This document shows positions 3,475 through 50,543 of a stretch of 64,000 bases of DNA, in pieces. The notes under the pieces are model-generated. The model saw nothing but the letters and a program-made list of their open reading frames with translations. It made no database searches and was not told the DNA's origin. A program made the position numbers and the translations under genes. Source of the DNA: Pseudomonadota bacterium. GTDB lineage: Bacteria > Pseudomonadota > Gammaproteobacteria > UBA4575. The stretch covers positions 2,239-66,238 of the forward strand of contig JBCDBX010000001.1 of assembly GCA_039182865.1 (NCBI GenBank), read 5' to 3'. Positions within the stretch are counted from its first letter, which is position 1; every line of letters begins with the position of its first letter.

Positions 3475-4134
3475 TTAATCTGAATTGATTTTCTGAGGTT
3501 TCCAACCGAGCTTCCAGTGGTTTTTCTTAACAATGACTGGTGGTCGACCATTATCGTAAAACCAGGAATCCACAACAAATTCTTCGTCTGATTCTTTTTC
3601 TTTAATTAGCACTGCAGTATGTGGATAACCAGCGGAGAAGCCTACTCGAGAAATGTAACCTTCTATAGTGTGCCATTTAAGCATATTTTCGCTCTCAAGT
3701 ATGCGCAAATAAGTATATGTATTTGATGATTCATCTATGCAGTCCATCTGATTGCTCTTAGATCTTTCTAACCCAAAGAGACTTGCATATGAACCCCCAA
3801 CATCAAACTGTGTATCCGTCATTCTACCCACTATAATTTCAAATTGGGCAACATATTCTGCAATTTGAATTCTTTCATGAGCAGCACTTAAATTGTTTAA
3901 CTCCCAATCAGAGGTCAACTTCTTCCATTCATTTCCAGTTAACGAGACTGATTGAATTTGCCGACAACCATGCTGATAACAAATCTTAAACTCCTCATAA
4001 CTGACTTCATTGGAAGATAAATCTAATGAGCTGTTTTGATAGCGCACAAAATTGGGCGACTTTGAAAAGACCAAAAAAGGAAAGCATAAAAGTAAAATAC
4101 TTAAAACTATGTATCGAATATTTAGTTTAAACAC
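3475..4134 (-). CDS. Periplasmic BTLCP-family (LapG-like, transglutaminase-like) cysteine protease
   Basis: Signal peptide. Cys-His-Asp triad in the characteristic BTLCP contexts and spacing: MDCIDES (versus GDCEDYA), PHTAVL (versus HAVL), VVDSW. The C-H gap is about 40 aa and the H-D gap is 16 aa. Confidence 0.55.
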   Translation of the reverse strand: MFKLNIRYIVLSILLLCFPFLVFSKSPNFVRYQNSSLDLSSNEVSYEEFKICYQHGCRQIQSVSLTGNEWKKLTSDWELNNLSAAHERIQIAEYVAQFEIIVGRMTDTQFDVGGSYASLFGLERSKSNQMDCIDESSNTYTYLRILESENMLKWHTIEGYISRVGFSAGYPHTAVLIKEKESDEEFVVDSWFYDNGRPPVIVKKNHWKLGWKPQKINSD

Positions 4135-7960: not shown

Positions 7961-9706
7961 ATGCTTCTGGATATGCAAATCTATATACCAAGTCAGGACC
8001 CGTTGGCTCATGAAGATTTCGCATTGACACCTCGAAAAGTTAAAAAGTGGATTAAGTCAGCATCACTTGCTGATCCGCAAAAAGCAAGCACGGAATTAAT
8101 CGAACTTATCTCCAATAGCAACCGTGTTACATTCCCAAGCAAGCAGCGCTACGCCTCATTAGAAATATTGGCGCCAATTTGTAAATCAATTTTAGCCCAA
8201 CATAGTAAATCTTTATCTCATCAGACGTTTCCTCTATCAGGAAATGCCGTAAAAAGTCATAATTTTCAGCAATCAATTTTAGCTGAAATAGCAATCTCTT
8301 ATAAGATTATTATTGCTGAAGCTGTGCATGGTGATAACAGTCTCAATCAGAAGAAATTACTATTATCACTTTTCAAGGCTATTTGTTGTTTAAAACAAGA
8401 ATATGTTTCGAGCTTACTAACATATCAAAAAATCTCAGAAAACATCTGGCCTGATATCTGTCAGCTCTATCGTGTTGCAGAATTTTATGATTTTCAAAAT
8501 CGTGTTGTTCAAGATAGAGAGCTTTCAGAAAAAACAACAATCGCAAATATTTTTAAGTATCTATGCTCACTGACCATGATTTCATTCAATAAACTAAGGC
8601 AAGGTGAGGCAAGTGCTATTATAAAATTTTTAAACAAAAACTGTCAGCTAATCGAAATTCAAAGTAATCTTGAGACATTTACTGAAGATTATATTTATCT
8701 TGCTAATTTAGCGACTGGCAAACCGCCTTCGTACTACATACCTAGAGAAGTTCCCATATCTTCAGAGAACCGTTTTGTGCTTTATTCTTTATTCATAAAT
8801 AAACTTTCTGAATTAAAGCAAAAGTATGTGCAGTCTCATTCATACTATCTACACTCTGATGATGAGATTGATCCAGATCTTGCCAATCGTTTAATCGAAA
8901 TGATAGGCAAGCCTACACAAAGAAGCAAAAAGCGCCTAAAAAGCAATCAAAAAGTTAAAGCTATTATTTGCCTAGATAAGATTTTAGAGACTTTAAATCC
9001 TGAACAAGATGAGCCTGATCCCTTAGCTGAAGATTCTTATATTCTACATAGCATGGCCTTGTTACCGATTGAAGAAAAATCAAAAATTATTTTTGATGAA
9101 TCAAAGACAGGAGACAGTCAATGTCTAGATATCTCTCAAAATCTTTCAGATATTTGGGAACATGACTCAGAATTGAATTCTAAGAATGAACAACCTGAAG
9201 AAATAAAAAATAATGATGCCAATGAAACGGGAACCTGGAAAATCGATAACTATAGCTCAGGTGGGTTTTGCCTCACTTATGACACAGATGGAAGTTGCAA
9301 AACACGCGTTGGTGAAATCATCGCTATTCGTGACACAAACAACGCAGATCAAACCATTCAATGGTTAACCGGAACAATTCGGTGGATGCAATGTGATCCA
9401 CAGCATTCAAACCGAATTGGCGTTGAACTATTTGGTGCTGAATGCGCATTTATTACAATACATACTAATAATAATGATTCGACTAAATATCATGGTCTTT
9501 TACTTAAGAAAATTGAAGATAATGAAAAGAAATTTAGCTTGTTAGTCCCTACTCGAGTAAGTTTTGATTCAAATGACATAGTTATACGTGGCAAGAAAAG
9601 TGAACGTAGTGCGATTCTAGGACAAACACTTGAAAAGACTAGCTCTTTTACACATTTTGAAATACTTGAAATAGCGACACAGAATCAAGTTTTAAATAAT
9701 TTATAA
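7961..9706 (+). CDS. 581-aa protein: an approximately 420-aa N-terminal region of unknown function plus a C-terminal non-canonical PilZ domain
   Basis: Residues about 425-500 read KIDNYSSGGFCL ... RVGEIIAIRD ... GTIRWMQ ... RIGVELFG. This matches the PilZ (D/N)xSxxG motif and the beta-barrel core. No RxxxR sits at the canonical -20 to -30 position. The nearest is RSKKR, about 105 aa upstream. Confidence 0.55.
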   Translation: MLLDMQIYIPSQDPLAHEDFALTPRKVKKWIKSASLADPQKASTELIELISNSNRVTFPSKQRYASLEILAPICKSILAQHSKSLSHQTFPLSGNAVKSHNFQQSILAEIAISYKIIIAEAVHGDNSLNQKKLLLSLFKAICCLKQEYVSSLLTYQKISENIWPDICQLYRVAEFYDFQNRVVQDRELSEKTTIANIFKYLCSLTMISFNKLRQGEASAIIKFLNKNCQLIEIQSNLETFTEDYIYLANLATGKPPSYYIPREVPISSENRFVLYSLFINKLSELKQKYVQSHSYYLHSDDEIDPDLANRLIEMIGKPTQRSKKRLKSNQKVKAIICLDKILETLNPEQDEPDPLAEDSYILHSMALLPIEEKSKIIFDESKTGDSQCLDISQNLSDIWEHDSELNSKNEQPEEIKNNDANETGTWKIDNYSSGGFCLTYDTDGSCKTRVGEIIAIRDTNNADQTIQWLTGTIRWMQCDPQHSNRIGVELFGAECAFITIHTNNNDSTKYHGLLLKKIEDNEKKFSLLVPTRVSFDSNDIVIRGKKSERSAILGQTLEKTSSFTHFEILEIATQNQVLNNL

Positions 9707-9718
9707 GCAGTATGCAGT

Positions 9719-11794
9719 ATGGATGAAGTATTAAAATTATTAGTACTTAGCAATAATGCTAACAATGCAGATGATATTATCAGAACTGCCAAGTCTTCAG
9801 GGTTTGCAGTTCGTGATACTATTGTGTCATCCAAAGATGAGTTTTCTGACATATGCTCTTTTGTAGAACAATTCCATATTGCCATTATTTCTGATGACTT
9901 TGACCAGCTTAGCATTAATGAAGTTAGCTCTAGCCTCAAAAGTGATGAACATTATGTATCACTCATTGCACTCAGCAATAATATTGCAGAGACTCAAGCT
10001 GAATCGATGTCAAATGGAGCTGATGCCGTTATCCCTGCAGATGATAAATCACAGCTGACACATGCAATTACACAAATTGCAAAAACTGAATTATATATTC
10101 AGAATCTGCAATCCAAATCAGATGCATATGAGGATTTAAATCAACGCTACCAAAAAATTCTTAATATTTCGCAAGACGCTATTTGTTATATCCATGAAGG
10201 CTTGCACACCTATGTTAATAAATCCTACCTGAAATTATTTGGCATTGAGGATATGGAAGATGCAAGCGCTCTTTCGATTCTTGAACTTGTCAGCCCTGAG
10301 GATCATGATAACTTAAAAAATATTTTAAAAGACGTCCATAAAAATCAAAACTCAGGCGACACTAAGCTAAATTTTAAAACTCAAAATAAAACACAGATTC
10401 TTCAAGCAACTTATGACCCAGTACTTGTTGAAGGAGAAATTTGTGCACAATTTGTTATTCATTGGGAAATAGAAAGCTCTGAAGAGTTGCAGGAACAGAT
10501 TAGTTATATCTCTGAAAGAGATCTTGAGACTGGCTTCTTTCATAGAAAGTCTATCATCGATAAATTACAAGAAGTTTTAAAACCAGACCGCAGTGAATTA
10601 GTCACACACACATTTGTACAAATCGATATAGCAAACCTTGATTACATTCAAGACCAACAAGGCGTTATTGCATTGGACCAGCTTAGCACACATATTGCGG
10701 ATACACTTCAGTCATCTTGTGATGGTGAAGATCTGCTAGCAAAAATCACGGACAAGTCTTATGGCATCCTCACGGATATTACTGACAGTGAGCAGTTAAT
10801 TTTATTTGGAGAGAAATTACGTGAGAGATTTGATGATAATCCTTTAAAAGTTAATGGCATCACCATCGAGCCTAAATTTTATATTGGTGCTGTTCATTTA
10901 GATGAAATGATCGAACAAGCCTCAGATGCGCTTGCTGCCTCTAAGCAGGCTTGTGACCACGCTAGCGAGCATGACCTTAATGAACTCTATTTATATCAAA
11001 GAGACCCTGCAACACTCACAGGAACAATGCTTGATCAAAAATGGGCAAATGAATTACAAGAAGCTATTGATGAGAATCGACTTAAACTTCAATTCCAACC
11101 GATTATTAGTACCAATAACGATAATATTGATCGCTATCAAGTTTATACTCAACTAATTAGTAGAGAAGGCACCAAAATTTCAGTTGCTGGGATTTTGCCC
11201 AGTATTGAACGCTCTGGTGTCTCTTCCATGTTTGATCGATGGGTCGTTGATTTATCATTGATCAAACTTGCCGAGCATACGCAACATAATCCGAATTCAC
11301 AGTTCTTTGTTAAGTTAACCGCAGGTGCGGTATCTGATGCTTCATTTATTCCATGGCTTAGCAAAAAGTGTACTAGTCGAGGCGTTGATCCTGAGAGAGT
11401 GATATTTGATTTGCGTGAAGATGTGGCTATCAATAATTTAAAAGAAACGAGATCATTCTCTACAGAACTCAAGAAACTTGGTTTCCAAATTGCAATTGAT
11501 TCATTCGGCATTGGGCAAGACCCCAGCAAAATACTGACCATGGTTCCTGCGGCTTATTTAAAACTAAGCTTTCAGTTAGTCTCTGGGATTAAAGACAATG
11601 ATGAGGAAAAAATTCAAGCCATCAGAAATATCTGCGAGGCCGCGAGTAATTCCGGTACCAAGATAGTAGCGCAGTTTGTAGAAAACGCAGAAGTCTTATC
11701 ACAATTATGGACAATGAATATTGACTATATAAGCGGTGATTTTTTCTGCAAAGTGGGTGCAAGCTTAGAGTACGACTTTTCAAGCGCTGCCTAG
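9719..11794 (+). CDS. FimX-like degenerate c-di-GMP protein: REC-like / PAS / GGDEF-like / EAL-like
   Basis: 691 aa. REC-like N-terminus with the acidic pair replaced (LLVLSNN). PAS (ICYIHEGLHTYVNKSYLKLFGIE). GGDEF fold starting ERDLETGFFHR, with the A-site GG(D/E)EF position reading TDKSYG. EAL fold (LQFQPIIS...) with EAL replaced by QVY and DDFGTG replaced by DSFGIG. The C-terminal (V)AEGVE and QGY positions read VAQFVE and SGDFF. Confidence 0.75.
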   Translation: MDEVLKLLVLSNNANNADDIIRTAKSSGFAVRDTIVSSKDEFSDICSFVEQFHIAIISDDFDQLSINEVSSSLKSDEHYVSLIALSNNIAETQAESMSNGADAVIPADDKSQLTHAITQIAKTELYIQNLQSKSDAYEDLNQRYQKILNISQDAICYIHEGLHTYVNKSYLKLFGIEDMEDASALSILELVSPEDHDNLKNILKDVHKNQNSGDTKLNFKTQNKTQILQATYDPVLVEGEICAQFVIHWEIESSEELQEQISYISERDLETGFFHRKSIIDKLQEVLKPDRSELVTHTFVQIDIANLDYIQDQQGVIALDQLSTHIADTLQSSCDGEDLLAKITDKSYGILTDITDSEQLILFGEKLRERFDDNPLKVNGITIEPKFYIGAVHLDEMIEQASDALAASKQACDHASEHDLNELYLYQRDPATLTGTMLDQKWANELQEAIDENRLKLQFQPIISTNNDNIDRYQVYTQLISREGTKISVAGILPSIERSGVSSMFDRWVVDLSLIKLAEHTQHNPNSQFFVKLTAGAVSDASFIPWLSKKCTSRGVDPERVIFDLREDVAINNLKETRSFSTELKKLGFQIAIDSFGIGQDPSKILTMVPAAYLKLSFQLVSGIKDNDEEKIQAIRNICEAASNSGTKIVAQFVENAEVLSQLWTMNIDYISGDFFCKVGASLEYDFSSAA

Positions 11795-12675
11795 TTTTTT
11801 TCAAGAGCGGCAATTCTTTGCTCCAGTGGTGGATGCGACATCAATAAGCTTTTTAAGCCACTTGCGATTCCACCTGAAATTCCAAATGCTGCCATCTCTC
11901 CTGGCAAATCTTGAGGCTCGTGCACAGACTGTAAACGTCGCAACGCACTGATCATCTTCTGCTTACCTGCCAAACTAGCACCTCCAGCATCCGCACGAAA
12001 CTCACGTTTACGAGAGAACCAGCTCGCAATGATCGCGGCAACAATTCCCAAAATTAACTCTGCAACAATACTACCAATGAAATAACCAGGCCCAATCCCT
12101 CTCTCAACCTTAAATACGACGCGATCAACCAACATGCCAATAATGCGTGAGAAGAAAATGACGAATGTATTTAGCACACCTTGTAGTAACCCCATCGTTA
12201 CCATATCTCCGTTCGCTACATGGCTAACTTCGTGACCAAGTACTGCCTCAACTTCATCTTGATTCATGGATTGCATGAGTCCCGTACTGACTGCAACGAG
12301 TGCATCATTCTTTTTCATCCCAGTAGCAAATGCATTAGGTTGCGGTGAATCAAACACTCCAACTTCTGGCATACCGATACCTGCCTGTTCTGCTTGGGTT
12401 TTAACCGTATCTAATAACCAACGTTCAGTATTATTTTTCGGCGTTTCAATTATTTGAACACCCATGCTTTTCTTAGCCATCCATTTAGATGCTGCTAAAG
12501 AAATAAAGGACCCACCAAATCCGAAGATCAAAGCCATAATTAAGAGACCGTTCATTTGCCCCATCATGCCTTGTTCAGCAAGCCATTGATCCAAACCTAG
12601 TACGCGCGCGGAAACGCTAAGCACCGCAAGCACACTAAAGTTTGCTAATAAAAATAAGCCTATTCTTGAAAACAT
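11791..12675 (-). CDS. htpX: Zn-dependent heat-shock protease HtpX
   Basis: HEVSHVANGD HExxH motif, four TM segments, and HtpX-like throughout. Confidence 0.9.
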   Translation of the reverse strand: MFSRIGLFLLANFSVLAVLSVSARVLGLDQWLAEQGMMGQMNGLLIMALIFGFGGSFISLAASKWMAKKSMGVQIIETPKNNTERWLLDTVKTQAEQAGIGMPEVGVFDSPQPNAFATGMKKNDALVAVSTGLMQSMNQDEVEAVLGHEVSHVANGDMVTMGLLQGVLNTFVIFFSRIIGMLVDRVVFKVERGIGPGYFIGSIVAELILGIVAAIIASWFSRKREFRADAGGASLAGKQKMISALRRLQSVHEPQDLPGEMAAFGISGGIASGLKSLLMSHPPLEQRIAALEKN

Positions 12676-12752
12676 GATTGCCCCTGTAACAGATCCATAG
12701 CACTATAAGATAATGACTAAATTTTACAATTCAATAACACAGGTAGCATGGT

Positions 12753-26915: not shown

Positions 26916-27542
26916 ATGAATCGTCGTCATTTTTTAAAAGCAGGCGTTATTGCAGGTTTAGGATTTACAGATGCCTCTGCAAATCGCAGCTATCATCCCA
27001 CACCTGCCGAGGTCAAAGGTCCCTTCTACCCTCTCGCCGGTCAGAAAGATAAAGACTTTGACCTCACAAGAATTGGCGATACTAATAAAACTGCATCAGG
27101 ACAACATATCACTGTCATAGGCTGTGTGTTGAATGCAAATGGAGAGCCTGTTGAGGAAGCGATGGTTGATATATGGCAAGCCAATGCAGCAGGCAAATAT
27201 GCTCACTCTTTTGATTCAAACCCTGCACCAGTTGATAGTAATTTCCAGGGTTGGGCCATCGTGTCTAGCGGTAAACGCGGAGAGTTTAAATTCAAAACTG
27301 TTTACCCTGGCGCCTATCCTGCAAGCCATAATTGGACACGACCGCCTCATATACACTTCAAAATATTTAAACAAGGTTATAAAGAATTAATCACGCAAAT
27401 GTATTTCCCTAATCACCCCCTAAATGATATCGATCGACTACTTCAAGCAAAGACTCTTGAGCAACAACAACTCATGATTGCCGAAAAGTCTATCGGCTTA
27501 CCCCATACTTACCATTATCAAGTCGTCATACAAAAAGCATAA
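26916..27542 (+). CDS. Tat-exported intradiol ring-cleavage dioxygenase-like protein
   Basis: Twin-arginine signal NRRHFLKAGVIAGLG. Dioxygenase_C-like core (EVKGPFYP ... GCVLNANGEPVEEAMVDIWQANAAGKY ... RPPHIHFKI). Confidence 0.65.
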   Translation: MNRRHFLKAGVIAGLGFTDASANRSYHPTPAEVKGPFYPLAGQKDKDFDLTRIGDTNKTASGQHITVIGCVLNANGEPVEEAMVDIWQANAAGKYAHSFDSNPAPVDSNFQGWAIVSSGKRGEFKFKTVYPGAYPASHNWTRPPHIHFKIFKQGYKELITQMYFPNHPLNDIDRLLQAKTLEQQQLMIAEKSIGLPHTYHYQVVIQKA

Positions 27543-27675: not shown

Positions 27676-30435
27676 GTGGAAAAAGTCTACCAACCACACG
27701 ACATTGAAAAGCACTGGTATCAGGAATGGAAATCAAAAGGATATTTCCAACCTGGCAAAGAAAGTACTCAAAAATATTGCATCATGATTCCGCCACCGAA
27801 TGTGACGGGTACCTTGCACATGGGTCATGCTTTTAATAACACCGTAATGGATAGTTTATCTCGTTATCACCGAATGTGTGGTGACGATACGCTATGGCAA
27901 CCAGGCACTGACCATGCGGGAATCGCGACTCAAATGGTGGTTGAACGTCAACTTAATGCCGCCGGTACTTCACGTGTAGATCTTGGGCGTGAGAAATTTC
28001 TTGATAAAGTATGGGAATGGAAATCGGAATCCGGCAACTCGATTTCACAACAGCTCGAACGCTTAGGATCTTCAGTTGACTGGTCGCGTGAACGTTTCAC
28101 TATGGACGAAGGTTTATCAGAAGCTGTGCGCGAGGTCTTTGTTCGCTTATATGAGGAAGACTTAATTTATCGCGGTAAACGTTTAGTCAATTGGGACCCT
28201 GTTTTACACACCGCAGTGTCCGATCTCGAAGTTATCGCCAAAGAAGAAAATGGCCACCTTTGGCATATGCGCTACCCTCTTGCAGATGGTAGTGGGCAAT
28301 TAGAGGTAGCAACTACACGCCCCGAAACTATGCTAGGTGATACCGCGGTTGCAGTTCACCCAGAAGATGAGCGTTATAAGCACCTGGTTGGAAAATTTAT
28401 AAAGTTGCCATTATGTAACCGTGAAATACCTATAATTGCAGATGACTATGTCGACCCTGAATTTGGCTCTGGCTGTGTCAAGATTACGCCTGCACACGAT
28501 TTTAATGACTATGAAATGGGTAAACGACATGATTTACCTATGATAAATATATTAACGGACGATGCTAAGTTAAATGAAAATGCCCCTAGTGAATTTCAAA
28601 ACTTAGACCGTTACGATGCACGCAAGAAGATTATTACAAAGCTACAAGAACAGAACCTACTAGAAAAAATCGTCGATCATAAATTAATGGTGCCACGTGG
28701 CGATCGCTCGGGCACAGTCGTCGAACCTTATTTGACTGATCAGTGGTATGTAAAAATTGAACCTCTTGCTCAACCTGCGATAGAAGCGGTTGAAAAAGGC
28801 ATGATACGTTTTATTCCTGAGAGCTGGAGCAATACTTATTTTGAATGGATGCGCAACATACAAGACTGGTGTATCAGTAGACAGCTCTGGTGGGGGCATC
28901 GCATTCCTGCATGGTATGATGATCAAGGCAATATCTATGTTGCCCGCAATGAAGAGGAAGTGCGCACCAAACATCAACTAACTTCAGATATTAAATTAAA
29001 GCAAGATGAAGACGTGCTCGATACTTGGTTTTCTTCTGCATTATGGCCCTTCTCAACTTTAGGTTGGCCCAAGCAAACAGCCGAATTAAAGGCGTTTTAC
29101 CCCACATCAGTTTTAGTTACAGGTTTCGATATCATATTTTTCTGGGTCGCACGTATGATCATGATGGGATTGAAATTCATGGATGACATTCCATTCCATG
29201 ATATTTATATCCATGGGCTAGTGCGTGATGCTGATGGGCAGAAGATGTCAAAATCTAAAGGCAATGTATTAGACCCCATAGACTTGATTGATGGCATCAC
29301 ACTTGAAGCACTTGTTGAAAAGCGCACTAAAGGTTTAATGCAACCACAAATGGCCACAAATATTGAAGCATCCACTCGTAAACAATACCCAGATGGAATT
29401 CCTGCTTTTGGCACTGATGCATTGCGTTTTACTTTTGCAGCACTTGCTTCAACAGGTCGCGACGTAAAATTCGATTTACACCGTATTGAAGGTTATCGAA
29501 ACTTTTGTAATAAACTTTGGAACGCTTCGCGTTTCGCATTAATGAACTGTGAAGAAAAAGAAATCCCAGATGCCATTAATTTTGCAACCTTATCTGTCAC
29601 AGATAGATGGATTCTAAGCAGACAACAAGAATTAATTGATATAGTACATCATGATTTTCAAAACTATCGTTTCGATCTCGCAGCAAAAGCACTATATGAG
29701 TTCACCTGGAACGAATTTTGTGATTGGTACCTTGAACTTATCAAACCTACATTATTCTCAAATGATGAGGCAGCAAAGCAACAAACCTTACGTGTTTTAC
29801 TAGAAGTACTCGAAAATCTTTTAAGACTGTTACACCCCATCATCCCGTTTATTACCGAGGAAATCTGGCAAGCCATAGCACCAAAATTAGATAGAGCTCA
29901 TGGCTCTATCATGCTACAGCCTTATCCTCGAAGTTGTAATGACATTGTCGACGTCGAAAGCGCAAGCAGTATTGATTGGTTAAAAGAATTTATTATAGGT
30001 GTTCGCAAAATTCGTTCTGAACAGGATATTGCACCCAAAAAAGAAGTGCCTATTATTTTGCAAAAATGCTCTAACAAAGACTTAGAGTATCTAGATATCC
30101 ATCGAACTGCGCTGATGAAATTGGCTAAGCTAGAAAGTATTAGTGTGATAAAAAATGAAGAACCTCCCGAAGCCGCACTAGCTCTGGTTGGTGAAATGAA
30201 AGTCATGATCCCGCTAGCAGGTTTAATCGATAAGGAAGCAGAACTTGCCAGACTGAATAAAGATATCAGTAAGCTTGAATCAAATATCGAAAAAACACGC
30301 AATAAGCTCAACAATCCTAACTTTAAAGATAAGGCTCCTGCTGACGTCGTCAATAAAGAAGAGGAAAGATTAGCCGAACAGGAACAAGCTCTAAGAGAAT
30401 TAATACAGCAAAGAGTTAAAATAGATAAACTATAA
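27676..30435 (+). CDS. valS: Valyl-tRNA synthetase
   Basis: 919 aa. HMGH and KMSKS motifs, C-terminal coiled coil. GTG start with an AAGGAAG RBS. Confidence 0.95.
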
Positions 30436-30444
30436 CTACTCTAG

Positions 30445-30531
30445 TTAGCCTGTTACGATAATAACTCCTATAGCCAAAGCAAGTAGTACTAGCACGATTC
30501 CCATAGCAACAAATAGTAGGTCATCAGTCAT
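30445..30531 (-). CDS. Small hydrophobic 28-aa ORF (MTDDLLFVAMGIVLVLLALAIGVIIVTG), convergent on the valS 3' end
   Basis: Single TM helix. Weak AAGG RBS 9 nt upstream. Below the ORF-track length cut-off. Confidence 0.3.
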   Translation of the reverse strand: MTDDLLFVAMGIVLVLLALAIGVIIVTG

Positions 30532-30649
30532 ATTAATACCTTTTATATGTATATAACAATAAAGATTTTATCACCTATAAGATTTCGATCTATTCAGATA
30601 ATCCTATCTCACACATATAATTTATTTATTATTCCCTTAAAATTTTGAC

Positions 30650-31270
30650 ATGGGCGACATCACCAATATTATTTACTTTATAGTCGCTTCTTTCCTTTTC
30701 ACAATTGCCCCTGGTCCTGATATGATTTTTCTAGTCACCCAAACCTTTACCCATGGCCCCAGGGCAGGCGTTCCTACCGCAGTTGGTTTAACTTGTGGAA
30801 ACTTAATACACACATTGGCTGCAGTATTGGGTGTATCACTCATCTTTCAAACATCTGAGCTTGCTTTTGACATTGTCAAAGTTCTAGGTGCTTGTTATTT
30901 ACTGTATCTGGCTTATGAAATTATTTTTAAACAGAATACATCGTCGAGTAAAAGCAAAAATTTAACTAAACACTCTTTAGTCGTGCGTGGCATGCTAATG
31001 AATGTATTAAATCCCAAGGTTATGCTTTTCTATATCGCATTCCTGCCGCAGTTTGTTTCACCTAACTCTCAACAAATAGAGTTAGAAATGCTTTTTTTTG
31101 GTGTACTATTTTCAATAATTGTACTGATAACATTTGGAAGTATTGGTTTATTTGCGGGATATTTTCGAAATATCACACCAAATAAATTACTTACAACACC
31201 TTCTTTCAAATGGATCTTAGCAATAATCTATATGTTATTGGCTACTCGTCTAGTGTTTGAATCCATCTGA
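30650..31270 (+). CDS. LysE/RhtB-family amino-acid exporter
   Basis: 206 aa with six TM segments. N-terminal PGPD motif typical of the LysE family. Confidence 0.7.
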   Translation: MGDITNIIYFIVASFLFTIAPGPDMIFLVTQTFTHGPRAGVPTAVGLTCGNLIHTLAAVLGVSLIFQTSELAFDIVKVLGACYLLYLAYEIIFKQNTSSSKSKNLTKHSLVVRGMLMNVLNPKVMLFYIAFLPQFVSPNSQQIELEMLFFGVLFSIIVLITFGSIGLFAGYFRNITPNKLLTTPSFKWILAIIYMLLATRLVFESI

Positions 31271-31452
31271 GTTTTATCTCCGTCTATCTGTGTTATTAGC
31301 TCTTATGCCCAAAATTAATGTGAAATCCATCACAACATTTTGATTTAAATCGAAATAAATTAGCCCTCTTAATTGAGACTTTGAATCACTTCATAATTTA
31401 GAAATACAGGATTTGTACAATAGATATGAAGCTTTAGATCAGGGATATATTT

Positions 31453-33159
31453 ATGAAACTGCTACTTCCATTGTTACTAGTATCACTCTTATCGTCTGCT
31501 GCATTTGCCGACAAGAATAAGCACTCTACTAAAGAATTATTAGAAGAGGCAGAGCAGACTATGCAAAGCCCAGAAGTTTCACCTGTGCGAAGAATCGAAC
31601 CTAAATTCAACAAGAATAAAAATAAACAGCACAATATTATTTATCGGAATATTGATGGTAGTTTCAACAATATTATCGATGATCAAATGAATGTCACAGA
31701 TACACAATTGATACGAGTCGCTGATGAAACTTACGGTGATGGTATCAGTGCTATGGGAGGAACTGATCGACCAAACCCAAGAGCAATCAGTAATGCGGCG
31801 TTATCTCAGACAGAATTATCATTCGCAAGTACAGGGGCAAGTGATTTTTTATGGCAATGGGGTCAATTTTTGGATCATGATATTGATTTGACCGAGGGCG
31901 TACACCCTGCCGAAGAAGTCCCTATCTCCATTCCTGCTGGTGATATACATTTCGACCCAAATAATATGGGCAATGTCGTCTTAGCATTCAACCGTTCAAT
32001 ATATGATACAAATACGGGAACAGATTCCAGTAATCCGCGTCAGCAAAAAAATGAAATTACGGGTTGGATTGATGCTTCGAATGTATATGGCTCGGATGAT
32101 GAACGCGCTCAAGCTTTGCGCAGATTGGATGGTTCAGGAAAGCTAAAAACTAGCGATGGTCGCCTTCTACCATTTAATACTGATGGCTTAATTAATGCAG
32201 GCGGTCCTAGTGCTGAATTTTTCTTGGCAGGCGACCCTCGTGCGAATGAACAAATAGGCTTAACCGTCATGCATACTCTGTTCGTGCGAGAACATAACCG
32301 TCTTGCAAGAATAATCGCTAAAAAGAATCCATTTTACAGCGGCGAAAGAATTTATCAGACAGCTCGTCGAATCGTAGCGGCTCAAATGCAAGTCATCACT
32401 TACAATGAATTTTTACCGATACTACTTGGCAAAAATGCAATTCCTAAATATGAAGGCTATGATCCTAATATAGACGCACGTATTGCAAACGAATTTTCAA
32501 CAGCGGCGTACCGACTCGGCCATAGTTTGCTATCACCACAAATTCTACGTATATATAAAAAACGTAAAAATTTCGACAATAGTGAAATCTCTTTACGCGA
32601 AGCTTTCTTTGCACCATTTCTTCTGACCAAAAAGAATAACATTGGCTCTATATTGCGCGGCTTAGCTTCTCAACAGTGTCAAGAACTTGATGTGTTCGTT
32701 ATTGATGACGTACGTAATTTCTTGTTTGGTCAGCCCGGAAGCGGAGGCTTTGATCTTGCTTCATTAAACATTCAACGTGGGCGAGATCATGGTCTTGGAA
32801 GCTACAATCAAACACGTATTGCACTTGGTTTACCTGCTGCTACTTCATTTGAAGATATTTCTTCTGACCCTGACATCCAAGCTAGACTTTCCAATGCTTA
32901 CGACAACGTAGACTTAATCGACCTCTGGGTGGGGGGATTAGCTGAAGATAAAGTTGATGGCGCCATGGTCGGACCCGTATTTTATGAGATTCTTAGAGAT
33001 CAATTCATACGCTTACGTGACGGAGATCGATTTTGGTACGAAAACGATATGAGTAAGAAAGAAATAAGGAACATTAAGAAAACAACTTTAGCAAAAATAA
33101 TTCGGCGCAATACAGGAGTTGGCAGAGAATTACAAAACAATGTTTTCTTGGTTAAGTAA
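31453..33159 (+). CDS. Secreted animal-type heme peroxidase (peroxidase-cyclooxygenase superfamily)
   Basis: Signal peptide. Distal His/Asp motif WGQFLDHDID. RANEQ heme-linking Glu motif. Proximal His in TLFVREHNRLA. Distal Arg in FSTAAYRLGHS. Confidence 0.8.
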   Translation: MKLLLPLLLVSLLSSAAFADKNKHSTKELLEEAEQTMQSPEVSPVRRIEPKFNKNKNKQHNIIYRNIDGSFNNIIDDQMNVTDTQLIRVADETYGDGISAMGGTDRPNPRAISNAALSQTELSFASTGASDFLWQWGQFLDHDIDLTEGVHPAEEVPISIPAGDIHFDPNNMGNVVLAFNRSIYDTNTGTDSSNPRQQKNEITGWIDASNVYGSDDERAQALRRLDGSGKLKTSDGRLLPFNTDGLINAGGPSAEFFLAGDPRANEQIGLTVMHTLFVREHNRLARIIAKKNPFYSGERIYQTARRIVAAQMQVITYNEFLPILLGKNAIPKYEGYDPNIDARIANEFSTAAYRLGHSLLSPQILRIYKKRKNFDNSEISLREAFFAPFLLTKKNNIGSILRGLASQQCQELDVFVIDDVRNFLFGQPGSGGFDLASLNIQRGRDHGLGSYNQTRIALGLPAATSFEDISSDPDIQARLSNAYDNVDLIDLWVGGLAEDKVDGAMVGPVFYEILRDQFIRLRDGDRFWYENDMSKKEIRNIKKTTLAKIIRRNTGVGRELQNNVFLVK

Positions 33160-33167
33160 TAGTATAT

Positions 33168-33584
33168 TTAGTGAGATATAAAAATATACTGAGAATCACG
33201 AAAACTCTTGAATTCCAAATAGTTCTGGCTGGGGTCTTGAATAAAAAAGGTTCTTTGTTCGCCAACTTGATCCTTAAAGCGGGTATAGGGTTCGATATAA
33301 AATTCAATATGATATGAACGCACTCGCTTAACAAGTTGGTGCCAGTCTTCCCAAGCTAGTATTGCGCCGAAATGTCTTGTGGGGACTGCTCTATTGTCCA
33401 CCTGATTGTAATTTTTACTCTCATCTTCTGCTAGATGGGCCGTGATTTGATGACCAAAGAAATTAAAATCAATCCAGCGCTCATCCTCTCTTCCAACATC
33501 ACAACCTAAAATTTCCACATAAAACCTTCGTGTTGACTTGATACTTTGGACGGGAAATGCCAAATGAAAGGGTGGAATACTCAT
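33168..33584 (-). CDS. VOC-family (glyoxalase / bleomycin resistance / dioxygenase) protein
   Basis: 138 aa. HLAFPVQSIKSTRRFYVEILGC N-terminal VOC motif. Confidence 0.65.
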   Translation of the reverse strand: MSIPPFHLAFPVQSIKSTRRFYVEILGCDVGREDERWIDFNFFGHQITAHLAEDESKNYNQVDNRAVPTRHFGAILAWEDWHQLVKRVRSYHIEFYIEPYTRFKDQVGEQRTFFIQDPSQNYLEFKSFRDSQYIFISH

Positions 33585-34258
33585 TATTTTTGATACGTGA
33601 CGTTATTTCTCAAATAAACTGGAAGTATATTTGAGGCGCCAAGCATTTCTCCAGACATTACTTTCTTTCGACCTAACAAGGCGGTGACTTTAGCCCTAGG
33701 TAATGCTTCAGCATTAATACATTCTTGATCTAAACGAGTTTTTTTTTGCAATATTGCAAAATAAGTTCCCCAGCCTGATCCCAGTCCAGACACAATGGAT
33801 CCCGCATTTACCTCAATCATCTCAGGCGCTTGTACTTTTTCTTCCACTACAAGCTCAACATCGAAATCAGATTTTTTTCGATAGACTGCCCAGTAAACTT
33901 CATTCATACGCGCATCAATCGCAGGTAAAACTAGTTCATCGCTAACAGTATCTACTTGGCATGCAAGATTGGCTAAAGTCGATATCGAAACTGCTGGCAA
34001 GTCATGCGCAAATGCGATTCCTTGAGCAACACCTGCAGCAATGCGTACTCCGGTAAATGCCCCAGGCCCACAACCAAACGCTATTGCATCCAATTGAGTT
34101 AGACTTACTTCTGACTCAGCCAGCACCTTTTCACACATGGGTAGTAGTAATTCATTATGTTGGCGTGGCGCTACTTGATACTGCTCAATGACCTCACCAT
34201 CAATTAATACCGCAGCAGAACACGCCTCGGTCGCAGCCTCAATTGCAAGTAATTTCAT
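33584..34258 (-). CDS. tsaB: tRNA t6A37 threonylcarbamoyladenosine biosynthesis protein TsaB (YeaZ)
   Basis: YeaZ-like N-terminus (MKLLAIEAATEACSAAV). Adjacent to yoaA, as in E. coli. Confidence 0.85.
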   Translation of the reverse strand: MKLLAIEAATEACSAAVLIDGEVIEQYQVAPRQHNELLLPMCEKVLAESEVSLTQLDAIAFGCGPGAFTGVRIAAGVAQGIAFAHDLPAVSISTLANLACQVDTVSDELVLPAIDARMNEVYWAVYRKKSDFDVELVVEEKVQAPEMIEVNAGSIVSGLGSGWGTYFAILQKKTRLDQECINAEALPRAKVTALLGRKKVMSGEMLGASNILPVYLRNNVTYQK

Positions 34259-36195: not shown

Positions 36196-36606
36196 CTATT
36201 TAGATGTAGTAGGACTTCGAAACACAATCCACTTTGATAAACAGAAAGTCACAATAACCGCAAAAAACGACCCAACAGCAACAGCGAGAAATGGCCATGT
36301 CTGCCAAAACACATCGTGTTCAATTAAACTTAGATAGATACCAATATTAAGCGTATGACTTATTACTTGGGTGACAACGTAAGTGAACTGTTGATATAAA
36401 ATTGAACTTTCTTTTGAATGCGCAAAAGTCCATCTGCGATGCCAATAAATAGCAAAAAAAGTTGCCGCACCAATCGCAACCAAACGCGCATAAAAGGGAT
36501 CAACTTCAAAGCCTTTAAACAGTAATGTTACTAATCCAGCATCGATAAGAAATGCCAGCCCACCCACTATAGCAAAGCGAAATACTTCTCTGCGCAAATT
36601 CTTCAT
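36196..36606 (-). CDS. GtrA-family membrane protein
   Basis: 136 aa, four TM segments, GtrA-like N-terminus (FRFAIVGGLAFLIDAGL). Confidence 0.6.
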   Translation of the reverse strand: MKNLRREVFRFAIVGGLAFLIDAGLVTLLFKGFEVDPFYARLVAIGAATFFAIYWHRRWTFAHSKESSILYQQFTYVVTQVISHTLNIGIYLSLIEHDVFWQTWPFLAVAVGSFFAVIVTFCLSKWIVFRSPTTSK

Positions 36607-47809: not shown

Positions 47810-48420
47810 TAAATAACTTCTGCGACCGGTTTAAAGCTTCTTCTATGATATTGGCATGCACCATATTGTTTTAAGGCAGCTAAATGTTGTGCTGTCGGAT
47901 ACCCTTTATGCTGAGCGAAACCATACTGCGGGAATGATTTGTCAAGATTAATCATTTCCGCATCGCGTGTAACTTTAGCAATTATAGAAGCGGCTCCAAT
48001 GGCGGGTACATGTTGGTCACCCTTGATTACCGCATAGGACTCAACGGATAACTCTGGACTAAACTTTCCATCCACTAATACCAATTCTATCTGTGTATCA
48101 AGCCCATCAAAAGCGCGTTGCATGGCAAGCAAACTCGCATTGAAGATATTATACCGATCTATTTCACATGCATTACACTGACCAATTGACCAAGACAGTG
48201 CATGTTCTTTGATCAGATTTGATAATTTTTCACGTTTTGCAGGTGATAATTTTTTTGAATCCTGAACTTCGTCCCAGCTCAAAGTATCGCCAAGCACGAC
48301 TGCCGCTGCAATAACTGAACCTGCCAGTGGCCCACGCCCTGCCTCATCAATACCCACATAAGTATTGATATCAACACTTATGCTTGAAAAATTAATAACC
48401 TTAGAGTGCTTCTTAATCAA
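47809..48420 (-). CDS. rnhB: Ribonuclease HII
   Basis: VGIDEAGRGPLAGSV catalytic motif. The true start is probably a non-ATG codon (TTG or GTG) near 48390-48420, not the long ATG-initiated ORF that runs to 48510. Confidence 0.85.
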   Translation of the reverse strand: MIKKHSKVINFSSISVDINTYVGIDEAGRGPLAGSVIAAAVVLGDTLSWDEVQDSKKLSPAKREKLSNLIKEHALSWSIGQCNACEIDRYNIFNASLLAMQRAFDGLDTQIELVLVDGKFSPELSVESYAVIKGDQHVPAIGAASIIAKVTRDAEMINLDKSFPQYGFAQHKGYPTAQHLAALKQYGACQYHRRSFKPVAEVI

Positions 48421-48510
48421 AATTCTTATCTGAATAATCTCAATCAAACTGCCAACAAATGCAATAGAATACGTATACTTAGAATTTTTATAACACATTA
48501 CGACAAGCAA

Positions 48511-49434
48511 ATGGGAATAATAAAAGCGGGAGTAGTTGGAGTCGGCTACTTAGGGAAATTTCATGCTGAAAAATACAACTCGCTCAAAAATTGTCACCTG
48601 TTGGGTGTCGTCGACACTAATGAATCCACAGCTATCAATGTAGCTAGAGATCTAACTAATGTTAGCGCATTTAAAAATTATCTAGATATTCTCGATCAAG
48701 TTGATGCGGTAAGTATTGTCACGACAACACCGGCACATTATGAAATTGCACGCGCTTTTCTATCTAAAGGAAAACATGTCTTACTCGAAAAGCCTATTAC
48801 ATCAACAACAGAACAGGCAGAAGAATTAATCTCTCTAGCCGATCAAAATAATTGCATTTTACAAATTGGACATATTGAACGTTTTAACCCTGCAGTACTG
48901 GCGATGGATGTATATCTACAGTCACCAAAATTTATCGAATCCCATCGCTTGTCGCCCTTTCGAGAGCGTGGAACAGACGTTGACGTTGTACTAGACCTCA
49001 TGATCCATGATATTGATATTATTCTTAGCATTGTGAATAGCGATATAGAAGACATACAAGCATCAGGCATGTGTGTATTGTCTGATGCAATTGATATCGC
49101 TAATGCGCGCATTACATTTAAAAATAATTGTGTTGCAAATGTAACAGCCAGTCGCGTAAGTAACAAAACCGAACGTAAACTACGTTTGTTTCAAGAAAAT
49201 GCTTACTTTTCAGCTGATTTAGCAAGTCATGATTTAAAAATTTATACTAGAGAAGAAAAAAAGATTGACTCACATAGCCTCACCTATGATAAATCTGATG
49301 CTTTACTCACGGAAATCAGTCAATTTTTAGATTGCATAGAGTCTAACTCTCAACCGTTAGTGACTGGCGCTGACGGGCTGCGTGCTTTGAGAACAGCCGA
49401 TATAATCAACCAAAAGATTCAACCTCAAAATTAA
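48511..49434 (+). CDS. gnnA: Gfo/Idh/MocA NAD-dependent oxidoreductase, GnnA-like (UDP-GlcNAc 3-dehydrogenase)
   Basis: N-terminal Rossmann motif MGIIKAGVVGVGYLGKFH. The start is placed at this Met, not the upstream ORF extension. Immediately followed by a DegT-family aminotransferase and lpxB. Confidence 0.7.
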   Translation: MGIIKAGVVGVGYLGKFHAEKYNSLKNCHLLGVVDTNESTAINVARDLTNVSAFKNYLDILDQVDAVSIVTTTPAHYEIARAFLSKGKHVLLEKPITSTTEQAEELISLADQNNCILQIGHIERFNPAVLAMDVYLQSPKFIESHRLSPFRERGTDVDVVLDLMIHDIDIILSIVNSDIEDIQASGMCVLSDAIDIANARITFKNNCVANVTASRVSNKTERKLRLFQENAYFSADLASHDLKIYTREEKKIDSHSLTYDKSDALLTEISQFLDCIESNSQPLVTGADGLRALRTADIINQKIQPQN

Positions 49435-50543
49435 TGTCTATGCCGATAACACCAATCCCTATGGTTGACTTGCGTACGCAATATCACACCTTAAAAGATG
49501 AAATCCAATCAGCCTTAAATGATACGCTAGAAAGTACTGCTTTCATTATGGGGCCTAATGTTCAAGCCTTTGAGAACGAAGCTGCAAAATATTTAAACTG
49601 CCAACATGCTTTAGGGTGTGCTTCAGGCACTGATGCATTGCATCTGGCTTTACGCGCACTTGAGATAACAAAGGATGATGAAGTAATTGTACCCTCATTT
49701 ACATTTGCTGCGACGGCAGAAGCAATTCGCTATGTCGGTGCAACACCCGTATTTGTAGACATTGAACTAGACTCACTCAATATCAATCCAGAAAAAATAG
49801 AACAAGCAATTAGTGATAAAACCAAAGCTATCATCGCAGTACATCTATTTGGATTGCCTGCCGATATTGGCGCTATTCAATCTATTATTGATGGCAAAGA
49901 TATTTATTTAATTGAAGATTGTGCGCAATCCTTTGGTGCAGAGTATAAAAAGAAAAAAACAGGAATACTAGGAGACATGGGATGCTTCAGTTTCTTTCCT
50001 AGCAAAAATTTAGGTTGTTATGGCGATGGTGGCATGGTCAGCACCGATAATGATGAACTTGCAGAAAAAGTTAAATTGTTTCGCAATCATGGCAGTCCTG
50101 TCAGATACGAGCATAGTATTATTGGTTTCAATAGTCGTCTTGATGAAATACAAGCAACAGTACTACGTATAAAATTAAAGTATATAGACAAATATAATCA
50201 AAATCGAAACCTAGCAGCAAAGAGATACACCCTGAAGCTTTCTGAATTAGGCATACAAACCCCTATTGAAAAATCTGAAAGCAGCCACGTTTTTCATCAA
50301 TACACTCTTTTAGATTTACGTCGCGACTCAATTTTTAAAGCGCTACAAAGAAATAATATAGCCTGCGCTATCTATTACCCCAAAGGCTTGCACGCTCAAG
50401 AAGCTTTCAAAGACAATTCTGTTATTAAAGACTTAGCCATCACAGAATATGCCACCTCTAACTGCTTATCACTTCCCATGTTTCCTGAACTATCAGAACA
50501 ACAGATAGATCGAGTTGTTGATATAATAAAAGAAGCTATCTAA
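49434..50543 (+). CDS. gnnB: DegT/DnrJ/EryC1-family PLP aminotransferase, GnnB-like
   Basis: 369 aa, DegT-family fold with the PLP lysine region (FSFFPSKNLG). Start overlaps the gnnA stop. Confidence 0.7.
   Translation: MSMPITPIPMVDLRTQYHTLKDEIQSALNDTLESTAFIMGPNVQAFENEAAKYLNCQHALGCASGTDALHLALRALEITKDDEVIVPSFTFAATAEAIRYVGATPVFVDIELDSLNINPEKIEQAISDKTKAIIAVHLFGLPADIGAIQSIIDGKDIYLIEDCAQSFGAEYKKKKTGILGDMGCFSFFPSKNLGCYGDGGMVSTDNDELAEKVKLFRNHGSPVRYEHSIIGFNSRLDEIQATVLRIKLKYIDKYNQNRNLAAKRYTLKLSELGIQTPIEKSESSHVFHQYTLLDLRRDSIFKALQRNNIACAIYYPKGLHAQEAFKDNSVIKDLAITEYATSNCLSLPMFPELSEQQIDRVVDIIKEAI

Follow-up and report, generated by a model that had tools for sequence, protein, structure and literature searches.

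Does a peroxidase gene named after animals, when it turns up in a bacterial chromosome, record a transfer from a eukaryote, or does it belong to the lineage that carries it? The question is raised by a heme peroxidase gene near the middle of a 64,000-nucleotide stretch of contig JBCDBX010000001.1 (GenBank assembly GCA_039182865.1, a Pseudomonadota bacterium), which we call the window. A sequence-only reading of the window had described a secreted, eukaryote-like heme peroxidase, recently acquired in a three-gene islet with a LysE exporter and a VOC protein, in a host-associated member of the Legionellales. Our analysis leads to a different view. We put at roughly 80% the probability that the gene encodes a real, intact, exported-type heme peroxidase of the short, single-domain, lactoperoxidase-like bacterial kind, one that is anciently bacterial and a vertically inherited resident of its lineage.

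The peroxidase and its family

The open reading frame (ORF) runs uninterrupted from an ATG start to a terminal stop and encodes a 568-aa precursor (Table 1). PF03098 (An_peroxidase) is the sole Pfam domain detected in it, and the model is covered in full (positions 1-530 of 530, E = 3.4e-162, 541 bits against a cut-off of 25). The family motifs named in the sequence-only reading are present, WGQFLDHD at residues 136-143 and RANEQ at residues 263-267. We carried residues over by sequence alignment from the crystal structure of CyanoPOX, in which the corresponding positions are distal H81 and R199, D80/E202, proximal H294 and N376, and the Ca2+ ligands D82, T140, W142, D144 and S146 (PMC11776367). 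On this mapping the distal residues are Q138, H142 and R263, and E266 together with R263 satisfies the X-R-X-X-E-X motif that defines the peroxidase-cyclooxygenase superfamily (PMC4420034). The ester-forming positions D141 and E266 are both present, and the distal Ca2+ site D143/T203/W205/D207/S209 corresponds position by position to that of CyanoPOX. The proximal histidine is H357, in YRLGHSLL, accompanied by N439, R354 and R442; H357 and N439 align with CyanoPOX H294 and N376 and are invariant in 90 sequences. The histidine of REHNR, which had been taken for the proximal ligand, is H281, a conserved residue but not the ligand. The catalytic, heme-linking and Ca-binding residues are invariant or nearly so among the 90 homologues. 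Q267 occupies the position of Met243 in myeloperoxidase (MPO), and C409 is the only cysteine, so that no disulfides are expected, as reported for CyanoPOX.

Structural comparison places the protein with the same enzymes. Matches in the PDB are led by CyanoPOX (8s6c, E = 4e-164), with Dictyostelium PoxA at 2e-98 and MPO and lactoperoxidase (LPO) at about 1e-75; identity over the local alignment is 53.5% to CyanoPOX, 37.5% to the Dictyostelium enzyme (DdPoxA) and 34.8% to human MPO. An AF2 model made with 20 close homologues reached a pLDDT of 44.7 and was not used; with 90 sequences the pLDDT was 88.1, and this model superposed on 8s6c at 1.7 Å with TM scores of 0.85/0.92 (Foldseek). The best Foldseek matches (8s6c, 6erc, LPO, MPO and DUOX), each with a probability of 1.00, share the helical peroxidase fold.

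The N-terminus, MKLLLPLLLVSLLSSAAFA followed by DK, has a basic n-region, a strongly hydrophobic core (mean Kyte-Doolittle 1.9-2.9 for windows 1-9) and a c-region with A-x-A at -3/-1, and cleavage is predicted before D20. A hydrophobic leader starts 19 of the 19 aligned peroxidase orthologues. Although the assignment to Sec and signal peptidase I is heuristic, made from the hydrophobicity profile and the cleavage motif, it bears out the signal peptide proposed earlier. The periplasm is the predicted location, and release to the medium would go beyond what the signal predicts. The linker that separates the signal peptide from the domain carries the motif SPVRRIE, in which S43 is invariant and P44, R46 and I48 are at least 90% conserved in the 90 homologues, drawn from several phyla. 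The motif was found in representatives about 55-60% identical (P0244, P0245) and is missing from more distant family members. The CyanoPOX alignment starts only at query residue 65 and thus leaves SPVRRIE outside the matched region; since residues 1-60 are of low confidence in the AF2 model, the segment could not be placed in the structure.

The family is far larger than a sporadic one. An exhaustive search of 1.84 billion 50%-identity representatives returned 14,647 clusters at a threshold of E <= 1e-3, of which 3,810 also pass E <= 1e-30. A word-indexed search matched at least 8,000 proteins, and the best 120 of them all have identities of 55-75% and lengths near 570 aa. In species-representative genomes, matches to just two short peptide patterns gave 428 confirmed relatives. 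Among these are gammaproteobacteria (Halieaceae, Alteromonadaceae, Cellvibrionaceae, Marinicella, Woeseia and Methylococcaceae), Acidobacteriota (Sulfidibacter and Acanthopleuribacter), and members of Myxococcota, Thermodesulfobacteriota, Kordiimonas, Nitrospinaceae, Dadabacteria and Spirochaetaceae. PF03098 occurs in all domains of life and has ancient prokaryotic roots, and its 'animal' name is misleading (Zamocky review, PMC4420034); for Family 6, a possible transfer from marine bacteria to early eukaryotes has been raised (PMC4420034).

In a neighbour-joining tree of 83 bacterial sequences with CyanoPOX, DdPoxA and MPO, the window peroxidase lies deep within the bacterial radiation. CyanoPOX branches beside this radiation, and DdPoxA and MPO sit outside it on long separate branches. 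The copies found in the same gene order as in the window (the syntenic copies) are monophyletic with 100% support, inside the all-bacterial radiation. Nested as it is among the 83 bacterial sequences, the protein falls outside chordate Family 1 (MPO/EPO/LPO/TPO), and two chordate traits, multiple disulfides and the MPO Met243 sulfonium link, are both wanting (C409 only; Q267). Because the family is large, spans many phyla and holds the gene within a bacterial radiation, remote from DdPoxA and MPO, the descriptions 'eukaryote-like' and 'sporadic in bacteria' both fail.

One member of the family carries an unexpected label. A metagenome-assembled genome (MAG) named 'uncultured Halobacteria archaeon' (MFD03551.bin.2.20, locus L036) holds a bacterial-type peroxidase, which groups with that of L052, a gammaproteobacterial MAG of the same sample series. 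Mis-binning or inter-domain transfer could account for this case.

The cassette, its boundaries and its inheritance

Profile matches confirm the neighbours named in the sequence-only reading, with LysE and valS on one side of the peroxidase and VOC and tsaB on the other (Table 1). NCBIfam matches of the LysE protein are of the RhtB/LeuE type and fall below equivalog cut-offs; the VOC start overlaps the tsaB stop by 1 nt. We sampled valS neighbourhoods at decreasing ValS identity in search of empty sites. In L086 (ValS 79%), valS is followed after 33 bp by convergent VOC-tsaB-dinG-ispF-ispD-ftsB-eno, and LysE and peroxidase are both missing. L087 (ValS 72%) and L088 (ValS 71%) have a few small ORFs at the junction, and neither LysE nor peroxidase; the L087 junction additionally carries a 4HBT thioesterase. 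Because VOC stands beside tsaB in all three of these cassette-less loci, we regard it as native, and the valS|VOC-tsaB junction as the native arrangement in the clade. The adjacency of valS and tsaB, which had been read as evidence of insertion, is thus no sign of an islet. The variable cassette consists of LysE and peroxidase only, so that two genes of the proposed three-gene block stand and the VOC gene drops out of it. LysE precedes the peroxidase, in the same orientation, in 8/8 loci with peroxidase at the tsaB site.

Table 1. Coordinates of features at the peroxidase locus (window numbering)
Feature	Position	Strand	Evidence and remarks
Peroxidase gene, 568-aa precursor	31453..33159	+	ORF; PF03098; GenBank MEM8843436.1 'MAG: peroxidase family protein'
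Sec-type signal peptide, residues 1-19, MKLLLPLLLVSLLSSAAFA	31453..31509	+	Hydrophobicity profile, A-x-A; heuristic prediction
SPVRRIE motif, residues 43-49, in the linker between signal peptide and domain	31579..31599	+	Conserved in 90 sequences
Peroxidase-cyclooxygenase domain, residues 64-565	31642..33147	+	Pfam envelope; residue mapping onto CyanoPOX and MPO
CRP-family-type palindrome TGTGAAATCCATCACA, candidate operator	31319..31334		Centre 126 bp upstream of the peroxidase ATG
LysE/RhtB-family exporter, second cassette gene	30650..31270	+	PF01810, E 1.7e-28
Candidate 28-aa single-helix membrane mini-protein MTDDLLFVAMGIVLVLLALAIGVIIVTG, valS-LysE spacer	30445..30531	-	ORF; uncertain status
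valS, left boundary of the insertion site	27676..30435	+	ORF; 33-50 bp from the next convergent gene in empty sites L086-L088
VOC/glyoxalase-fold gene, right boundary, native last gene of the tsaB-dinG operon	33168..33584	-	PF00903, E 1e-8
tsaB	33584..34258	-	TIGR03725, E 5e-54

The cassette appears to have been inherited along with its surroundings. The peroxidase occupies the tsaB site in seven other lineages, and in six of these valS is kept alongside. In L002, L005, L006, L007, L011 and L013 the order is lptF-lptG-pepA-holC-valS-LysE-peroxidase-VOC-tsaB, and it runs on as dinG-ispF-ispD-ftsB-eno in the five of these six loci that reach far enough; L003 shows LysE-peroxidase-VOC-tsaB-dinG-ispF. 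Between the window and its syntenic relatives, identity is 66-72% for the peroxidase, 79-85% for ValS, 78-82% for Eno, 75-80% for PepA, 55-68% for TsaB, 67-73% for DinG, 64-73% for IspF, 58-75% for LptG and 59-73% for HolC. The peroxidase therefore diverges within the range of its housekeeping neighbours, and no faster. Its composition is native as well: against 51 window genes, GC is 0.404 (z 0.36), GC3 is 0.315 (z 0.10) and the codon log-likelihood has a z of -0.74, so the comparison with the flanks that had been suggested as a check gives no atypical signal. We found no integrase or transposase in the cassette block by ORF and Pfam annotation, and no Rfam match, tRNA families included, anywhere in the 64-kb window, with no rRNA and no riboswitch near the gene. 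A search for att-like or terminal repeats at 30300..33700 gave nothing above chance, the matches being short and AT-rich; of those that flank the cassette, the best pair (I6) is 21 nt long and 71% complementary.

Trees of the peroxidase and of concatenated housekeeping proteins were compared, all of them neighbour-joining on corrected p-distances. L085 and L003 were left out of the housekeeping tree; their pairing in a first concatenated tree was an artefact, because they have no genes in common. The housekeeping analyses join L086 to the cassette-bearing clade as its sister (95-100%), and L087 and L088 lie outside. Two local conflicts aside, the main groups agree between the peroxidase and housekeeping trees, with the window and L002 joined at 100% in both and L005, L007 and L011 at 85-100%. 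The locus L089 (GCA_033344735.1, ValS 83%; LysE-only site at 12027..12729) has valS and LysE followed by a gene for an approximately 130-aa protein, VOC and tsaB, and has a 78-bp spacer in place of the peroxidase. Since it is nested in the cassette-bearing clade at 100%, we regard it as a secondary loss that left LysE behind. The L011 peroxidase (about 10000..11700) is shifted out of frame at a poly-A run beyond the linker and also contains an in-frame stop (...KMNG*GKLKTS...); either the gene is a pseudogene or the assembly is in error here.

Presence and absence are thus polymorphic at the site, the whole cassette missing in L086, L087 and L088 and the peroxidase alone in L089. The polymorphism is old, because the cassette is present in the window and seven further lineages. 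In the simplest history suggested by these comparisons, the LysE-peroxidase pair would have entered the convergent valS|VOC-tsaB junction once, in an ancestor of the clade and before the radiation of at least eight lineages (the window counted), and would have been inherited vertically since. An insertion, as proposed in the sequence-only reading, did take place, and the cassette is missing from the sister lineage. That it was a recent horizontal acquisition does not agree with the native composition, the lack of mobility signs, the 100% monophyly of the syntenic copies and a divergence equal to that of the neighbours. Phylogeny and shared synteny together largely point to vertical inheritance in a bacterial clade, at a depth of roughly genus to family, which is our estimate from 79-85% ValS identity.

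A second peroxidase paralogue also appears to be an old resident. The non-syntenic copies L001, L008, L009, L010 and L090 form the sister group of the syntenic copies with 100% support. L010 is in the same MAG as the syntenic L007, and L090 (7001..8758, GCA_033344735.1) shares a chromosome with L089, some 200 kb away from the valS site. The sister pairing of L090 with L010 (100%) mirrors the species pair L089/L007, which argues that both paralogues have long resided in the lineage. LysE does not adjoin this second copy, paralogue B; the 7 kb around L090 contain PALP, GFA, formate/nitrite-transporter, luciferase-like and AhpC genes.

Which lineage this is can be narrowed down. None of the closest 120 ValS clusters (70-100% identity) has a label finer than Gammaproteobacteria, Pseudomonadota or Proteobacteria bacterium, some have no label, and one cluster is from Tara Oceans. 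No Legionellales label occurs in these 120 clusters or in the 80 closest peroxidase loci, and the relatives that are classified belong to UBA4575, so the proposed Legionellales host finds no backing. The L008 and L009 MAGs are assigned to o__UBA4575, f__UBA4575, with sizes of 2.5-2.7 Mb and 38-46% GC (PMC9868349 supplement); the GC of the window is about 40%. UBA4575 is an uncultured GTDB order placed in the 'CMS clade' with Cycloclasticaceae and Methylophagaceae, and is recorded from North Sea blooms, sponges and coral skeleton. The window probably comes from in or near this order of uncultured marine Gammaproteobacteria, judging from these sequence relationships. Elsewhere the window carries ordinary core chromosomal genes (parC/parE, xerD, dsbC, eno, kdsA, pyrG, tilS, accA, dnaE, rnhB, lpxBAD, bamA, rseP, dxr and cdsA). 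A Gfo/Idh/MocA oxidoreductase gene and a DegT-type aminotransferase gene are inserted between rnhB and lpxB at 48406..50543 (+). The two genes resemble the GnnA/GnnB pair of Legionella, Leptospira and others, which makes the 2,3-diamino sugars of lipid A, and they may be what lay behind the Legionellales guess.

Several other genes of the region vary or lack an assignment. An approximately 130-aa protein with a signal peptide is encoded between the peroxidase and VOC in six loci and is gone from the window, L002 and L086. It has His-rich motifs (...HHPHVNEQPFTRY...CNHGHES), adjoins VOC (L003 9744..10139, L006 11778..12167), and no Pfam match was recorded for the called gene products. We considered it as part of the cassette and rejected this: L087 and L088, which have no peroxidase, carry homologues beside VOC, and the gene is therefore taken to be native. 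Between holC and valS, at 26916..27542 (+), the window has a Dioxygenase_C (protocatechuate-dioxygenase-like) gene with a twin-arginine signal (MNRRHFLKAG...). It is missing from every syntenic relative examined and thus looks like a later insertion than the peroxidase. A gene for a GtrA-like membrane protein between dinG and ispF (36196..36606, -) is likewise found in the window alone among the syntenic relatives. In L085 an IS-like pair (HTH_28 and an rve integrase core, 11896..12629) directly follows valS; synteny with tsaB is broken there, and pmbA/tldD come after the pair. Three window ORFs have no Pfam match at E <= 1e-3, namely 2638..3396 (+; 252 aa), 3475..4134 (-; 219 aa) and 7961..9706 (+; 581 aa).

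Regulation and partners of the peroxidase

The peroxidase may have a promoter of its own. The candidate operator (Table 1) is the only perfect TGTGA-N6-TCACA in the 64-kb window. The LysE-peroxidase spacers are 152-197 bp long and otherwise unalignable, and 7/7 of those examined contain a match to this pattern of at least 8/10 positions; in 5/7 syntenic spacers the palindrome has a shuffle P <= 0.01. Across the window as a whole, the CRP-type pattern with at most one mismatch is found 3 times against 2.69 expected. Because the pattern is not enriched in the window, the palindrome draws its weight only from conservation across loci. Its retention in spacers that otherwise cannot be aligned points to a separate, peroxidase-specific promoter under a CRP-family regulator. 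Consensus scans for promoters and terminators around the cassette gave 13 against 12.0 and 3 against 2.1 matches in shuffled sequence and were not used.

L002, L006 and L007 each have a homologue of the mini-ORF in the valS-LysE spacer (Table 1), with position and strand unchanged. No homologue was detected in L005, L011 and L013, nor in the empty sites.

In other lineages the neighbours are different. Among the loci L015-L084, a sensor histidine kinase adjoins the peroxidase in 23 and an OmpR-type response regulator in 19; examples from other phyla are L027 11762..13255 and L084 9191..9889. This suggests that a cognate two-component system regulates the peroxidase in those other-phylum loci. 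No H2O2-generating oxidase or other functional partner recurred beside the peroxidase in 80 loci. LysE adjoins the peroxidase in none of about 70 loci from other lineages, and its identity between the window and the syntenic relatives is 41-64%, more diverged than the peroxidase. LysE is no obligate partner, because it is kept alone in L089, is more diverged and is not adjacent elsewhere.

Proposed function and comparison with known systems

We suggest that Sec would export the precursor, the 19-residue signal peptide being removed, and that the mature protein would bind heme b and the distal Ca2+. On first exposure to H2O2, the heme would become ester-linked to D141 and E266 in an autocatalytic reaction. 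Compound I would form with H2O2 at H142/R263 and would convert iodide, thiocyanate and probably bromide, in one two-electron step, to HOI, HOSCN and HOBr; alternatively, it could react with phenolic donors in two one-electron steps. Enzymes with two esters (LPO, EPO, LspPOX and peroxidasin) oxidise I-, SCN- and Br-, and only the sulfonium-linked MPO oxidises Cl- (PMC5787809). With Gln267 instead of the sulfonium-forming Met, chloride oxidation by the window protein is not expected. CyanoPOX, which retains the Asp/Glu pair, oxidises iodide with a kcat of 885 per s and also accepts guaiacol, ABTS and 2,6-dimethoxyphenol (2,6-DMP) (PMC11776367). The production of oxidising species proposed in the sequence-only reading is in keeping with the halide and pseudohalide oxidation that homology leads us to expect. 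The net effect would be consumption of H2O2 outside the cytoplasm together with production of short-lived oxidants. We infer that the physiological role is most likely H2O2 removal combined with competitive or defensive chemistry at the cell surface.

Several points weigh against the picture of a vertically inherited, halide-oxidising enzyme. The neighbour survey shows no H2O2 source encoded nearby, and the substrate preference would be extrapolated from enzymes that share 35-54% identity with the window protein. In the isolated CyanoPOX the heme was bound non-covalently (PMC11776367), so that ester formation is not guaranteed. The Sec signal predicts the periplasm only, where hypohalous acids would be hazardous to the cell itself. 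The peroxidase and housekeeping trees, neighbour-joining rather than maximum likelihood, are in well-supported conflict at two local points, L005+L011 (99%) against L007+L011 (99.5%) and the placement of L013, which leaves room for some recombination between close relatives or between paralogues. The cassette could have originated either by duplication within the lineage or by an old transfer from another bacterium. Finally, the link to UBA4575 is an indirect one, through membership in the paralogue-B clade and two MAGs with both copies, and MAG chimerism is possible.

How do other explanations compare? That the gene is a recent eukaryotic import, secreted by a host-associated member of the Legionellales to act on host matrix or make oxidants, and lodged in an islet of LysE, peroxidase and VOC, seems to us highly improbable. 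The Pfam name 'Animal haem peroxidase', the MPO/LPO match at about 1e-75, the absence of the cassette from the sister lineage L086 and the coral or other host-derived metagenomes of several relatives would all fit such an origin. They are outweighed by bacterial homologues at 55-75% identity against 35-38% for eukaryotic ones, by a position within the radiation of a large, bacterially rooted family, and by a native VOC gene, a native valS|tsaB junction, native composition and no mobility signatures; the peroxidase has moreover been co-inherited with its flanks in at least eight lineages within what is otherwise core chromosome, and no close relative is labelled Legionellales, the classified ones being UBA4575. 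Equally hard to credit is the view that the gene no longer works or is in decay, as a pseudo-peroxidase or on the path to loss. The gene is evidently dispensable, being lost in L089 and carrying a frameshift and an in-frame stop in L011, and the peroxidase domains of DUOX show that the fold can lose catalysis (PMC4420034). Yet the window ORF is uninterrupted, its catalytic residues are present and invariant across 90 homologues, and it diverges no faster than housekeeping neighbours.

The other two explanations accept a working enzyme and assign it different chemistry. LysE and the peroxidase could form one module, in which an exported metabolite (an amino-acid derivative or thiol) is oxidised in the periplasm as an H2O2 sink or to yield a bioactive product. 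The two genes are adjacent and co-oriented in 8/8 site loci and are missing together from the empty sites, with a conserved mini-ORF alongside in four loci. We nevertheless consider this unlikely: L089 retains LysE after losing the peroxidase, LysE is far more diverged (41-64%), paralogue B lacks a LysE neighbour, the roughly 70 loci of other lineages show recurrent two-component systems and no adjacent LysE, and the peroxidase has its own conserved candidate operator upstream. A role like that of MopA, in which extracellular Mn(II) oxidation, NADH-dependent superoxide production or both would replace halide oxidation as the main activity, strikes us as still harder to support. Enzymes of the superfamily oxidise Mn(II) in Aurantimonas, Erythrobacter, Roseobacter AzwK-3b and Pseudomonas putida GB-1, and superoxide production has been proposed for the Roseobacter enzyme (PMC6247904); the organism studied here is marine. 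Erythrobacter MopA, however, has 2,138 aa, PERCAL motifs and a hemolysin-type Ca-binding domain, whereas the window protein has 568 aa, PF03098 only and a Sec signal; its nearest characterised relative is the lactoperoxidase-like CyanoPOX, and it keeps the halide-associated Gln138 and both ester residues.

We also entertain, as an unlikely extension, that the mini-ORF, LysE, the peroxidase and the CRP-type operator make up a dedicated, nutritionally regulated extracytoplasmic oxidant system of an uncultured, UBA4575-like marine order, with SPVRRIE acting as a pro-peptide or sorting signal of a kind not described before, which keeps the enzyme latent until it is exported. If so, seawater iodide and bromide together with ambient or host-derived H2O2 could be turned into HOI and HOBr, for interference competition or as part of halogen cycling. 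More generally, finding an 'Animal haem peroxidase' in a bacterial genome is no evidence of eukaryote-to-bacterium transfer. Of the short bacterial enzymes in this superfamily, which number in the thousands, only a handful have been studied, and those in recombinant form. Such enzymes may contribute to marine iodine and bromine oxidation. The locus offers a natural experiment, with close lineages that carry the cassette, LysE only, a possible pseudogene or an empty site. Comparison of these lineages could reveal the niche that favours the enzyme, be it plankton or the surfaces of corals, sponges and algae.

Placed among known systems, the window protein differs in architecture from the MopA-type 'long peroxicins' of Family 5. 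These too are bacterial, extracytoplasmic, Ca-dependent marine members of PF03098, but they run to about 2,000 aa with PERCAL and hemolysin-type repeats (definition PMC6247904), none of which is found in the 568-aa window protein. At 37.5% identity, DdPoxA of Dictyostelium discoideum (PDB 6erc) comes second to CyanoPOX as a match in both structure and sequence. It is a secreted enzyme of Family 6 with a single domain, oxidises I-/SCN- and serves an antibacterial function. It has Ile in place of the ester-forming Asp, and with it a single ester bond and poor bromide oxidation; the window protein keeps D141. Mammalian LPO and MPO share the fold and the catalytic, ester-forming and Ca-binding residues. 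The window protein is without their disulfides, insertions and longer termini, and its identity to MPO is about 35%. LPO presumably has Gln where MPO has Met243, as the window protein does with Q267.

The closest parallels are bacterial. LspPOX of Lyngbya sp. has two heme ester bonds and an Fe(III)/Fe(II) potential of -0.158 V, and oxidises bromide (PMC5787809, PMC4420034); we liken the window protein to it by literature description and shared ester-forming residues rather than by sequence. CyanoPOX of Cyanobacterium sp. TDX16 (PDB 8s6c) also consists of one PF03098 domain, of about 500 residues and without disulfides, and has the same distal His/Arg, proximal His/Asn/Arg, Asp/Glu ester pair and distal Ca2+ site. 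Its tail is a PEP-CTERM sorting motif, whereas the window protein ends right after the domain (...NNVFLVK) and has a linker of about 45 residues with SPVRRIE that the CyanoPOX chain does not match; the host phylum and genomic context differ as well. Judged by its sequence, the window gene is an ordinary addition to a large bacterial family from which characterised bacterial enzymes are already known.

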